NCBI GenBank assembly: GCA_965208675.1
Contig: OZ242351.1
Location: 960,001-1,024,000, forward strand
DNA: 64,000 nucleotides
Reading direction: 5' to 3'
Origin: Candidatus Poribacteria bacterium
GTDB taxonomy: Bacteria > Poribacteria > WGA-4E > PCPOR2b
Below the pieces are notes generated by a model, which saw nothing but the letters and a program-made list of their open reading frames with translations, ran no database searches and was not told the DNA's origin. Below, piece by piece: positions 4,047 through 39,361 of the stretch. A program made the position numbers and the translations under genes. Each line of letters starts with the position of its first letter. Position 1 is the first letter of the stretch.

Positions 4047-4418
4047 TTACTCTCTATCGTTGAATATGCGTTTGTATTCCAAACGATTTGCTCCGAAATT
4101 GATGAGAAGCCCGATTTTAAAATCGTAAGCGACGACATAGTTTTTTGCTTGTGCAATATGCACGTCCTCTAGGTGAGTCAACGCTTTTAATTCAACGACG
4201 ACTTGATTGGCGACTATAAAATCCGCTCTTCTAGTTCCAACTTCAACGCCGCGATAAAAGACTGGCTGTTCCACCTCACGACCAAAATTGATACCTGCGC
4301 TTTCAAATTCAATTGCCAGACACCTTTGATAAATCACCTCCTGAAAGCCATTTCCAAGCCTCTTATGCACTTCCATCGCGCAGCCGATGATTTGATAAGT
4401 CAAACTATCTTTTATCAT
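4047..4418 (-). CDS. GxxExxY protein (PD-(D/E)XK nuclease-like)
   Basis: GNGFQEVIY (GxxExxY), RADFIV...VVVELKA, GLLINFG; start uncertain (4418, or up to 4484). Confidence 0.92.
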   Translation of the reverse strand: MIKDSLTYQIIGCAMEVHKRLGNGFQEVIYQRCLAIEFESAGINFGREVEQPVFYRGVEVGTRRADFIVANQVVVELKALTHLEDVHIAQAKNYVVAYDFKIGLLINFGANRLEYKRIFNDRE

Positions 4419-4603
4419 ATTGAGATAATCTTTACCCGGTGTCTCTTGATTCAGACAATTTACTCTGCCGCTCCTTAAATTCACTGTAATGACAGGACAG
4501 ACAAGTCAGTCCGAACGTGGGAGAGGCATACCTGTCTCGATAATCGGGCGAGGGATTGCCGCCCAACAGTGCGTCCTTGTCAGATGGGTTATCTCAATCG
4601 CGT

Positions 4604-5557
4604 TTATTTTTGCACTTCACGCAGCAAATTTACCCAGCTCTGGCGTTCTCGTGCGGGGTCTACAAGCGGTTTAAGCCGTTCACACCACGTCTTGACAGTA
4701 TTGTAAAACGCCGGGTCTGTCTCAATTCGCTCTAGGAGTTTCGCCAATGCGTACGTATCGCCTACCGGAAAGTAGCCCGGATAATCCTCGCCGAGTAGAC
4801 CGATTGATCCGGATATTTGCGACGAAATGACGGGCGCCGAACAGGCGATCGCCTCGCCAACCACATTCGCGCCGCCCTCCATCTGTGAAGTCAACACGAG
4901 CGCGCGGCATCGGGCTAACCGGCGAAGTGCCTTCCAGCGAGGAATTTCCCCTAACCAACGATAGCGCGGATTGGACGCTTCTTCCGCTCTTGCGGTTTTT
5001 TCCAATTCCTGGCTTAGGGCGGCGCCGATATGCACCACTTGGATTCGCGAGTCGCCGCGCAGGCAGCGGGAAGCCATCGCTGTCCTGAATGGGTCCTTCA
5101 CGGGACGCAGATGTCCAATCACTCACACCTCAAAGACATCTTTTTTTGGAGAAAAGACGCCCGTCGGTGTCTTCACAGATTGGTAAATGACGCTAGCCTT
5201 GTTTCGCAAACGCACCGGAAGTTCATCAATACCCACCGCTTGCAGCACGATGAACCGCGACGCCATCTCCAGCGATTCTTGAGCGGACGAATCGGTATGG
5301 ATATCGCTGTACAGATCTGTTCCGGTCAGCGCCAGGATGAGCGGTAGGTCGGGGTATTTTTCCCGAAAGCGTTTAATGGAAACATAACTGCGGCGTGCGT
5401 GAAGCGCGACCATCAAATCGCACCGCTCGCCGCCGTACGCTTGCTGAACCAGGACATCGTGACCCAACTCGCGCAATATGCGAGCCCAGCGCAGCGCCGT
5501 AACACGGTTTCCTTTGCGGGAGCGCGGCGGCGCCGGGGTAACCATACAAATTTTCAT
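4604..5557 (-). CDS. senB: Selenosugar synthase SenB (GT-B glycosyltransferase) with in-frame TGA at 5123-5125
   Basis: MKICMVTPAPPRSRKGNRVTALRW, LTGTDLY, GHLRPVKDP, EGGANVVGEA. ORFs 5123..5557 and 4604..5122 are in the same frame and join as ...DVFEV*VIGHLR... (317 aa on readthrough); directly downstream of senA. Confidence 0.88.
5086..5125 (-). promoter_or_regulatory. Candidate bacterial SECIS element
   Basis: mRNA UGAGUG-AUUGGACAUCUGC-GUCC-CGUGAA-GGAC-C-CAUUCA: UGAGUG/CAUUCA lower stem, GUCC/GGAC upper stem, apical loop 20 nt after UGA with G at loop position 2. Hand-folded only. Confidence 0.35.
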
Positions 5558-5644: not shown

Positions 5645-6958
5645 TCAGTCGAGCACGCAGGTGCGAAATCCAGCCAGCACGTCCCGCCGATCCGGCGTAT
5701 AGAAATTGCGCCAGGTGTTGCGCAGCATCCGGGAACGCGTTGTCCAGCACCCGCCGCGCAGTACCTTTCGAGATTCGAACCAGGGGGCGGAATATTCCTT
5801 GTACAGGTCAACCGCAAAACCTGGATATGGGTGAAAACTGCTGCTCGTCCATTCCCACACATTGCCCATCATCTGACGGCAGCCGAAACCGCTGTCGCCC
5901 GCTGGTAATGCGTTTACACTGACACAACCCATCTGATTCCAATCCAAGTTAGCCCGCTCAGGCGTATGCGGTTCGCCGCCCCAAGGGAAGCGCCGCTTCG
6001 CTGACGAAAGCCCCTCACCGTCGAGGCGCGGTTCTGCGGAGGCAGCAACCTCCCACTCAACCTCTGTTGGGAGCCGGCGCTTCGCCCAACGGCAGTACGC
6101 CTCAACCTCATACCAGTTGACATGGATGACGGGAAGGCCGGGTTCGAGCGGCACCCATTCGTCAAAATGCCGCCGCAACCATTCGCCAGCCGTGTCACAA
6201 CGCCAATAGACGGGATGTCGTGCCGCCTCCGATTTACGCCAATCCCATCCGTCCGGACTCCAAAGGTCGCTTCGGCGGTAACCATCATCGTCCACAAATG
6301 CAGCGAATTCGGATTGGGTGACCGCGGTAGGCGCAATCGCAAATGGTTTGACCTCGACAGGATGCGCCCATTTTTCATTGTCAAACACGAATTCTTCAGC
6401 TTGAGCCGCGCCCAACAGGAAGATCCCGCCGGGAATTTCAACATCGCCGTGAAGCGTGTTGTCCTTGCAGTCTTCAGGGTGAGGGGCCATGCCAGTCGAG
6501 AACGCCGGCGGACGATAACCCAGCGTTTGCCGCGTATACGTGAACGCTTCGGTGTGCATATCTTCGTGAAAAACGGCATATCGGGTGAGATAGATTTGCT
6601 CATCACTCAATTCCCCGCTTTCAATAGTTTCGATAACCGCATCGCGGACGTTGCGCATGTACGCCAGCGTCTCTTCGCGAGTTGGAATCGACAGCGCCCA
6701 GCGTGTATCGTGTGCGATAGCTATTGAATCCCAGAGTGCGTCCGCGTCGTCCCGAATCGGTTTCTGTTTGCAAGCGTGCCGCAGCACCCATTTTTCTTGA
6801 AACCACGCCACATGCCCGATCTCCCACAACGGCGGGTTTACGATTGGTAAGTACGGTCCTATTAGCTGCTCGTCATCCAAATCGGTGACCAAATCGATCG
6901 TTCGCTGGCGTGCATCGTACACCCACTCAGCGAGCTGTGCCGTTATATCGCATTTCAT
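5645..6958 (-). CDS. senA: Selenoneine synthase SenA (EgtB-family non-heme iron DinB + FGE-sulfatase domain protein)
   Basis: IVNPPLWEIGHVAWFQE, HEDMHTEAF iron-binding His motif, RLPTEVEWE, GNVWEW, RNFYTPDRRDVLAGFRT; adjacent to senB. Confidence 0.88.
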   Translation of the reverse strand: MKCDITAQLAEWVYDARQRTIDLVTDLDDEQLIGPYLPIVNPPLWEIGHVAWFQEKWVLRHACKQKPIRDDADALWDSIAIAHDTRWALSIPTREETLAYMRNVRDAVIETIESGELSDEQIYLTRYAVFHEDMHTEAFTYTRQTLGYRPPAFSTGMAPHPEDCKDNTLHGDVEIPGGIFLLGAAQAEEFVFDNEKWAHPVEVKPFAIAPTAVTQSEFAAFVDDDGYRRSDLWSPDGWDWRKSEAARHPVYWRCDTAGEWLRRHFDEWVPLEPGLPVIHVNWYEVEAYCRWAKRRLPTEVEWEVAASAEPRLDGEGLSSAKRRFPWGGEPHTPERANLDWNQMGCVSVNALPAGDSGFGCRQMMGNVWEWTSSSFHPYPGFAVDLYKEYSAPWFESRKVLRGGCWTTRSRMLRNTWRNFYTPDRRDVLAGFRTCVLD

Positions 6959-37450: not shown

Positions 37451-37672
37451 TGTTTCTCCTTTACACAGGAAATCAATTATTGGGTTATTCTACCATATAA
37501 GGAATCCCTATCATAACAAAAAATTGCGCCCATTGAATTTCCAGATTTCCCATGCGAGCTAGGCGACCACCATGAGCAATACGCCCCTCGCAATTTCCCT
37601 TTATATTTGAAATTAACTATAGTAAAATATACACTGCGATCGTAGAGTAATTGCAGGAATAAAGGACATGTG

Positions 37673-39361
37673 ATGCCAAAAATGACCGGTTCCAAATTTA
37701 TCGCCGAAACATTGAAGGGGTACGGCGTTACGACGATCTTCTTCGTGCCGGCGATTTTGAGAGGCGTCCTTGTTGAAGCCGAGAAGTTAGGTATAAAGCG
37801 AGTGCTCTGCCATTCCGAGAAAGCTGCGGCATACATGGCGGACGGCTACGCTCGTGCATCGTATGGACCGGGGGTCGCCATGGCGCAGTCCGTAGGTGCG
37901 GCTAATCTTGCCGCCGGGCTGCAGGATGCCTACCTCGCGTTGTCACCGGTGCTTGCCATTACCGGTCGGTTGCCGCCGTACTACCGGTACCGCCGCGCAT
38001 ACCAGGAAATCGACCATTGGCCGCTCTATGAACCAGTAACCAAGTATAACGCTTTCGTTGATGCGGTTGACCAGTTGCCTGTCATGTTGCGTCAGGCATT
38101 TCGAGAGGCGAATTCCGGCGCGCCAGGTCCGGTTCACTTGGAATTGTTGGGATTTCAGGGCGAAACGGTTGCGGACGCTGAAGCCGACTTAGAAGTGATA
38201 ATTGAGGAAGCCTTCACGCATTGTCCGCCGTTTCGCACTGAACCTGAACCGGAATTGGTGAAACAGGCGTCCGCGCTTCTCGCGCAGGCTGAACGGCCGG
38301 TCATCGTTGCCGGCGGGGGCGTTGCTGCGTCCCATGCGGGTTCAGAGATTGTCAAATTGGCAGAGATGCGTTCTATACCCGTGGCAACGTCTCTGAACGG
38401 CAAGGGGAGTATCCCGGAAAACCACCCTTTATCTGTAGGAGTCGTCGGTTCTTACTCGCGTTGGTGCGCCAACCAGATAGTCTCAGAAGCCGATCTAGTC
38501 CTTTTTGTAGGAAGCCACACGGGTGGACAGGTTTCCCATTTCTGGCAGGTACCAAAACGCGGTACCGCGGCTATTCAGATTGACATAAACCCGTCAGCCA
38601 TCGGGCGAAATTATCCGACGCAAGTGGCTATGCTTGGCGACGCCAAGGTGTCCGTACAGCGTCTCATTGAGGCCATTGCCCTAACCCCCGCACCTACCGA
38701 TGGGCGTAATACTTGGACGGCTCGAGTAATCCAATTGGTAGCACAGTGGTGAAAAGAGCTTGAGCCGCTTTTCAACTCCGAATCATCACCCATCCGACCT
38801 GAGCGGCTGTGCAAAGAAATATGTGATTTCCTTCCTTCCGATGCCGTACTAGTATCTGATACGGGGCATGCCGGCATCTGGTCAGGAACAATGATTGACC
38901 TTGAAGCACCCGGCCAGCGATATCTACGATGCGCCGGCTCCCTAGGTTGGGGTTTTCCGGCGGCTTTGGGTGCGAAATGCGCTGTCCCCGAGAGGCCTGT
39001 GATCTGCTTTACTGGTGATGGGGGTTTCTGGTACCATCTCAGCGAGTTAGAAACTGCGCTTCGCTGCGGAATTAACACGGTGACCGTGATTAACAACAAC
39101 CATTCGCTGAATCAGGACAAAGCGGGTGTAGACCGTGCATACGGCGATGCGCCCACCGGCAACCGCGAGGAGCTTTGGGTGTTTGAAAACGCGGATTTCT
39201 CGAAAATTGCGCAGTCCATGGGCGGTTTCGGGATTCGAGTGGAGCGTCCTGGAGATATCCAGTCCGCTTTGGAACAGGCATTGGCTTCAGGCAAACCATC
39301 GGTGGTGGATATATCAAGCGACATCAATGCCTTCGCACCATTGCCCTACGTTCCAGATTAA
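37673..39361 (+). pseudogene. Thiamine-diphosphate enzyme (acetolactate synthase large-subunit-like) interrupted by in-frame TGA at 38750-38752
   Basis: HSEKAAAYMADGYAR, PGPVHL, GSLGWGFPAALGA, GDGG...NN TPP motif; frame continues through TGA (QW*KELEPLFNSESSPIRPERL...SDTGHAGIW) into ORF 38891..39361. Confidence 0.8.

Follow-up and report, generated by a model that had tools for sequence, protein, structure and literature searches.

How is a TGA codon read when it lies inside a gene for selenium metabolism? The question is raised by senB, which encodes the selenosugar synthase of the selenoneine pathway and is located on the minus strand (4604..5557) of a 64,000-nucleotide (nt) stretch of the Candidatus Poribacteria contig OZ242351.1 (positions 960,001 to 1,024,000), referred to here in its entirety as the window. 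The reading frame has 317 codons, followed by TAA, and contains a single TGA (5123..5125, minus strand) at residue 145 (U145). As initially annotated, the minus strand reads GAG GTG TGA GTG ATT GGA CAT CTG CGT, with the TGA at 5125-5123, and both halves of the gene are in one frame. Under translation table 11 they become separate products of 144 (5123..5557) and 172 (4604..5122) amino acids. We consider, with a probability of about 0.87 based on sequence comparisons, that the TGA is a selenocysteine (Sec) codon, read by SelB and Sec-charged transfer RNA, Sec-tRNA(Sec), with the aid of the hairpin GUCC-CGUGAA-GGAC, to give SenB with Sec145. Sec decoding of this UGA had been proposed from the window alone, and the proposal now draws support from the recurrence of the TGA, its exchange with cysteine (Cys) codons, the presence of the Sec machinery and the refutation of translational stop and restart.

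When read through the TGA, senB matches TIGR04348 with 405.9 bits (cut-off 300) from residue 3 to 313 and from profile position 1 to 309 of 310, with the alignment running across the TGA. The gene upstream, transcribed in the same direction, is senA (5645..6958, minus strand), which encodes selenoneine synthase (NF041186, 516.1 bits, cut-off 420). As senA terminates with TGA, this codon is an ordinary stop in the host and has not been reassigned. The family match, the retained active-site residues and the senA neighbor identify the gene as senB, the product of which is a predicted Se-glycosyltransferase acting on selenophosphate and a UDP-sugar. The selenoneine biosynthesis genes senABC were reportedly described in 2022, and SenB is, to our knowledge, the only Se-glycosyltransferase that has been characterized.

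Recurrence of TGA at one senB column

Searches of 41 related genomes identified senB above the cut-off in 31, nine of which have exactly one TGA within the gene, and a scan of the phylum (176 genomes) identified senB in 45 (E value of 1e-60 or better), ten with one TGA. Full-length senB rows (54, with the partial rows L060, L062, L067 and L068 excluded) were reduced to 45 distinct sequences. At the column of U145 these have TGA (16), TGT (13) or TGC (11), so that 24 encode Cys, or a codon for alanine (3) or serine (2). In all rows read, the column immediately precedes V-[IL]-G-H-L-R. Every senB TGA that was found falls at this one column, which excludes chance as an explanation. The two serine codons (TCA, AGT) are in L041 (genome G006) and L043 (G029) and the alanine codons (GCC, GCG) are in L046, L048 and L051 (G050-G052). 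TCA is one change away from TGA.

Species genomes and metagenomes were also scanned with a degenerate pattern consisting of the TGA and the motif that follows it. The pattern finds only TGA forms that have kept this motif and its counts are therefore lower bounds. All ten matches in species genomes are senB genes with TGA at the U145 column. Nine are from Poribacteria genomes found in the profile scans, with one match (L054) equated with genome G069 by elimination only. The tenth (L061) is from a metagenome-assembled genome (MAG) labeled 'uncultured Planctomycetia bacterium'. The senB in this MAG is 48% identical to that in the window, scores 385 bits when read through and has a senA of its own ahead of it (462.9 bits); a search that covered selA found this gene in the same genome. 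Seven of eight metagenome matches are senB genes with TGA, the eighth being a chance match in AT-rich DNA. Recurrence of TGA at the column, as anticipated for a Sec codon, is thus documented in ten Poribacteria genomes, one Planctomycetia MAG and seven metagenome contigs, and close relatives do exchange TGA for TGC or TGT. A genome of the same genus (G002), with a senB 90% identical to that in the window, has TGC; TGA is present in one of the 20 senB genes of genus g5 and in all three genomes of genus g10. In a DNA tree from which the TGA codon and the following 11 codons were omitted, there are at least five changes of TGA state, three of which are forced by well-supported branches.

The initial annotation allowed for a nonsense mutation or a sequencing error. 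In favor of an error in sequencing or assembly, the window contains another in-frame TGA (38750-38752) that is unique to this genome, being present in one of 15 orthologues. The TGA in senB, however, is present in nine other species genomes, seven metagenome contigs and a second phylum. Positions 5123-5125 are also covered by contigs of three further sponge metagenome studies and by one contig from a metatranscriptome library, which is no proof of transcription; none differs there among the 40 of 86 differences listed, consistent with the first reading of the codon. There is also a public gene call of a 144-amino-acid product, with 94% identity, on a contig of 44,222 bases, which is also the length of a contig from run X5 that spans the site. 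An error is therefore practically inconceivable, and comparison of these sequences indicates that the senB TGA results neither from an error nor from gene decay. The TGA at 38750-38752, which served as an internal control, is in a 563-codon frame for a thiamine-pyrophosphate-type enzyme (37670-39361, plus strand), in the context ..LVAQW-TGA-KELEP... Genome G001 has a partial match to this gene, with TAA. This second TGA probably reflects a nonsense mutation of recent date or an error rather than a Sec site.

A true stop would leave senB broken or, as suggested for this locus, would yield two polypeptides by restart at the next GTG. In the window, a GTG does follow the TGA with GAGG positioned 5 nt upstream, and public gene calls give pieces of 144 and ~171 amino acids. 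However, the next codon is GTG in only six of the 12 distinct TGA forms, the others having GTA (3), GTC (2) or GTT (1), and relatives have not retained the GAGG. In the AlphaFold2 model of SenB (mean predicted local distance difference test score of 96.1), the cut would divide a beta-strand predicted at residues 142-147, in agreement with the expectation that a split here would interrupt a strand. Both halves of the gene are under selection. Between TGA-bearing genes, the ratio of nonsynonymous to synonymous substitution rates (dN/dS) is equal on the two sides of the TGA, with values of 0.07-0.17 in the downstream part, and synonymous sites are near saturation (divergence of 0.6 to >2). Each TGA genome has one senB-level match, with no second copy found in the 41-genome or phylum scans, and breakage would not recur solely at a Cys column across two phyla. 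These observations make a true stop, with or without restart, very unlikely.

The host genome, a single contig (C1) of 4.89 Mb with DNA that is found in sponge metagenomes, has the components needed for Sec decoding. All four genes sought were found: selA, selB and the gene for tRNA-Sec adjoin each other on the minus strand (C1:2131405-2134883), and selD has its own in-frame TGA, within the motif KCAG-U-ASK. One TGA is likewise present in each of at least six further genes of known selenoprotein families, among them four AhpC/TSA genes, a molybdopterin oxidoreductase gene and an Rdx-family gene. The coordinates of this set, selD included, are C1:1464681-1465049, 4351412-4351753, 4575962-4576351, 150211-150594, 1610732-1612003, 2490796-2491011 and 4649539-4650462. 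The machinery and the many TGA-bearing genes of selenoprotein families indicate that the host uses Sec widely. Of the 41 relatives, 40 carry selA, the exception (G009) being a TGA genome that is 90% complete and in 730 contigs, so that the presence of selA fails to separate TGA from Cys genomes.

A short hairpin downstream of the UGA

The candidate selenocysteine insertion sequence (SECIS) is an apical hairpin at 5093..5106 on the minus strand, with GUCC (5106-5103) and GGAC (5096-5093) flanking the loop CGUGAA (5102-5097), all within the codons for R151-P-V-K154-D. The stem has 4 base pairs (bp) and the loop 6 nt; the hairpin starts 16 nt, and the loop 20 nt, after the UGA. The bacterial SECIS (bSECIS) model, as quoted in PMC13188914, calls for a loop of 3-9 nt on an upper stem of 4-16 bp. 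A G is required in the first two loop positions, with G or U next to it, the distance to the UGA should be 16-37 nt and the minimum free energy (MFE) should not exceed -7.5 kcal/mol. The senB hairpin conforms to the loop, stem and spacing rules of this model.

Synonymous codon variation was calculated column by column, once for the TGA rows of Poribacteria (15) and once for the Cys rows (24). In the TGA forms, the six-codon window from +5 to +10 has 0.29 bits, the lowest value of the gene (gene mean 1.07), whereas in the Cys forms it is ordinary (0.98 bits), and this is the largest deficit of TGA relative to Cys forms of all windows. The synonymous sites that are frozen in the TGA forms only are located 18-32 nt after the UGA. 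In these forms R-P-V-K is invariably encoded by CGU CCC GUG AAG and, except in one sequence, D is encoded by GAC. The exact stem and loop are present in 15 of 16 TGA rows versus 8 of 29 non-TGA rows. In the sixteenth TGA row (L061), the sequence CGG UCC GUG AAA GAC gives GGUC-CGUGAAA-GACC, in which the loop begins identically and the 4-bp stem is displaced by one base. The other seven TGA genes of the host have comparable hairpins, with G[G/U] in the loops (GGUCU, GGU, GUC, GGG, CGGGAU, AGUUA and GUU). Their distance from the UGA is 16-22 nt, their stems have 4-7 bp and their stabilities are -3.2 to -11.0 kcal/mol. It is the synonymous sites frozen specifically in TGA forms, and the likeness to the other probable Sec sites of this genome, that argue for a SECIS in senB.

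Longer folds were also considered. Of the two-helix structure first drawn for this region, the short apical GUCC/GGAC hairpin is upheld. The UGAGUG/CAUUCA outer helix can form in the window but is not kept in relatives, and neither is a GG-N/N-CC lower helix. The hairpin at 5060..5087 (minus strand), regarded at first as a competitor, does exist in the window but was judged to be outside the element. In the TGA forms, the synonymous sites of codons +13 to +22 are free to vary (1.3-2.0 bits), relatives have not kept the pairing and the loop is farther from the UGA than the 16-37 nt that the bSECIS model allows.

Proposed selenocysteine at residue 145

A number of observations weigh against a Sec codon in senB, some of which concern the RNA. 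The hairpin is weak, with -3.5 kcal/mol for its 4 bp, placing it at the weak end of the range for the Sec genes of this genome, and the 51-nt region is no stabler than dinucleotide shuffles (z +0.93, with 171 of 200 folding at least as well). When the hairpin is forced over 48 nt, the senB segment has -7.8 kcal/mol and 11 of the 16 TGA forms pass the -7.5 kcal/mol rule, with the remaining five falling short (-6.0 to -7.3 kcal/mol). RNAalifold, applied to the 16 TGA forms, favors a different, overlapping 4-bp hairpin (GG-N-C with GUCC) that competes for the GUCC. This alternative was rejected; its variable position pairs only as A or G and is on a side without synonymous constraint. There is no covariation in the stem, which is invariant in the 12 distinct TGA sequences; the sole variable lower pair forms in seven of the 12 and its covariation score is reached by 85 of 500 shuffles. 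As the stem never varies, covariation is uninformative for it. A search of 4950-5250 on either strand returned no Rfam match with E values up to 10. As 8 of 29 non-TGA genes also have the hairpin, finding it does not by itself identify a Sec gene. Neither thermodynamics nor covariation, by which the SECIS was originally to be judged, carries any part of the case made above.

Other contrary observations concern the residue. Cys was initially given as the residue at this column in many SenB proteins. This holds for the close subfamily, with Cys in 110 and Ser in one of the 111 scorable sequences among the 120 closest full-length homologues, but not for SenB overall. In 150 representatives obtained by clustering at 50%, the column has C in 74, A in 22, L in 19, V in 16, S in 8 and T in 5, and in the characterized Variovorax paradoxus enzyme, it is Val (Val149). 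Other SenB proteins having Ala, Leu or Val, Sec is not needed for SenB catalysis in general. No partner Cys was found that co-varies with Cys145, nor is there a classical redox motif, and it would be unusual for Sec to occupy an isolated position within a core strand. The model places residue 145 within beta-strand 142-147, with hydrophobic residues at 144, 146 and 147; this is presumably the buried strand with which the C-terminal Rossmann domain of the GT-B fold begins.

Residue 145 is, as noted from the outset, just ahead of the conserved motif, three residues before the G-H-L-R-x-x-K loop, although its column is not a conserved catalytic position. In V. paradoxus SenB, Lys158 is reported to be the catalytic residue and Arg155 to contact selenophosphate (PMC10891094, PMC11237966). 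These correspond to K154 and R151 of the protein encoded in the window, which are present in 149 of the 150 representatives, and N17, H53 and T78 align with the V. paradoxus residues N20, H58 and T83, which participate in substrate binding according to the same papers.

The insertion of Sec, the binding of SelB to the hairpin and any role of the Sec residue are what we infer from these comparisons. The short hairpin, written in the codons of the conserved R-P-V-K-D motif that includes the catalytic lysine, would recruit SelB carrying Sec-tRNA(Sec) to the UGA, and full-length SenB would then have Sec145 where its closest relatives have Cys, the Sec replacing a non-essential Cys of the protein core. 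The protein needs the codons of the hairpin in any case, and the hairpin already exists in 8 of 29 genes without TGA, so that one change of TGY to TGA could generate a working Sec gene. Such a change from TGC or TGT may have occurred, or been reverted, several times, and a ready-made hairpin would explain the repeated switches between TGA and Cys codons. A side effect, possibly selected, would be that SenB synthesis becomes tied to the selenium supply.

The same decoding could also serve mainly as a gate, with the chemistry of the residue secondary. When selenium and Sec-tRNA(Sec) are scarce, translation would stop at codon 145, no SenB would be made and selenophosphate would be spared for the selenoproteins. 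Stated more fully, the UGA and its miniature SECIS would form a translational selenium gauge, in which a harmless replacement of a core Cys by Sec links selenoneine synthesis to the charging of tRNA(Sec). Selenium would enter the small-molecule pathway once the needs of the selenoproteome have been met, with Sec a regulatory rather than a catalytic device. The tolerance of the column for Ala, Leu, Val and Ser and the absence of a redox partner Cys make a catalytic need for Sec unlikely and so fit a gate. SenB and SelA draw on one selenium donor, selenophosphate (PMC10891094, PMC11237966), the sole selD of this genome is itself Sec-dependent, and the TGA has been kept over deep divergence within one family, in all three genomes of genus g10. 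The TGA/Cys flips among close relatives (the window's genome, G000, versus G002, and one of 20 in g5) are, however, equally consistent with near-neutral exchange. We regard a gate as possible but doubtful, and hold the gauge in its fuller form to be just as tentative.

Alternatively, Sec145 might have a direct chemical role, in selenium handling or protection of the active site, that it performs better than Cys in this subfamily. The near fixation of Cys in the close subfamily is in line with such a role, as is the location of the residue so close to the loop with the catalytic K154. However, characterized SenB enzymes with Val at the column are active, half of the 150 diverse representatives lack Cys, five Poribacteria genes have Ser (two) or Ala (three) and, in the model, the residue appears to be within a strand with hydrophobic neighbors. 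A direct chemical role is consequently improbable. We lean towards an opportunistic replacement of Cys by Sec, with the dependence on selenium as a consequence.

If SenB is indeed a selenoprotein in Poribacteria, an enzyme that makes selenoneine is, in some bacteria, itself a selenoprotein, and the routes of selenium into protein Sec and into small molecules would be coupled. It would also add a glycosyltransferase to a list of selenoproteins dominated by redox enzymes and provide a natural case of Sec at a position dispensable for catalysis, with a bearing on why Sec is used. Regarding the origin of Sec sites, the SECIS appears to pre-exist inside codons that are fixed for protein reasons.

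Annotation and known systems

Public annotations split the TGA-bearing senB, in Candidatus Poribacteria for instance into a 'hypothetical protein' of 144 residues and a 'glycosyltransferase' of 171 residues, and the capacity of sponge symbionts to make selenoneine is therefore under-called. Of the short SenB homologues listed (120), 24 have residue 144 as their last and another 27 begin at residue 146 or 147. A different group within the same 120 (P0157-P0242, for example P0158 and P0229) comprises 31 N-terminal pieces of exactly 170 residues. These all end with ...LLP[GE][SA]S, corresponding to residue 170 of the query, and have Cys at column 145; some are encoded on long contigs (up to 3.76 Mb), and for one the name gives an Acidobacteria bacterium as the source. 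Judged from these protein records, a second site of recurrent in-frame stops, at SenB codon 171, may exist in another clade. In other SenB proteins, the residue at this position is R or K, not Cys. Directly downstream of senB in the window, at 4047-4484 on the minus strand, there is a gene for a GxxExxY / PD-(D/E)XK_3 family protein (TIGR04256, 138.7 bits), for which no connection with the sen genes is evident.

The accessible passages of PMC13188914, PMC13326102 (BSepDB), PMC12013277 (deep-Sep) and PMC5322559 name no glycosyltransferase, and neither SenB nor TIGR04348, as a selenoprotein. Likewise, the accessible parts of the SenB structure papers (PMC10891094, PMC10702425, PMC11237966) make no mention of a Sec or Cys form of SenB, and neither these nor the discovery paper (bioRxiv 10.1101/2022.04.13.486033), to the same extent, name SenB as a selenoprotein. 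SenB would thus be a selenoprotein family unreported in the literature searched, although an earlier mention may exist. The decoding mechanism is known; it is the position of the Sec that is unusual.

The structures solved for V. paradoxus SenB (PDB 8FBX, 8JJN, 8JJQ) match the protein encoded in the window with an E value of 1e-63. The two enzymes belong to the same family, with a full-length match and a senA neighbor, and the active-site residues N17, H53, T78, R151 and K154 and the motif EGGA-x-V are kept. They differ in that V. paradoxus SenB has Val where the gene in the window has TGA. As described in the discovery paper, the sen genes of other phyla form a three-gene cassette with selD/senC (bioRxiv 10.1101/2022.04.13.486033). 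In contrast, no selD/senC adjoins senA-senB in the window and the sole selD of the genome is 3.7 Mb away.

Bacterial selenoproteins such as FdhF, SelD and peroxiredoxin-like proteins share with SenB a UGA aligned to Cys, a host with Sec machinery, a patchy exchange of Sec and Cys and a hairpin within the reading frame that has G in the first two loop positions and is located 16-37 nt from the UGA. In such proteins, Sec usually takes the position of a conserved catalytic Cys within a redox motif (PMC13188914), whereas the Sec of SenB would be a lone core-strand residue of a glycosyltransferase, at a variable column, and the putative SECIS is unusually short. A further parallel is Sec-containing SelD, which is present in the same genome. 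The Sec of SelD is beside a lysine in a conserved N-terminal motif (KCAGUASK), which we take to be the glycine-rich active-site loop, whereas that of SenB would be at no known catalytic position. In both, nevertheless, an enzyme of a selenium pathway would itself depend on Sec, a feed-forward dependence on selenium that SelD already exemplifies.

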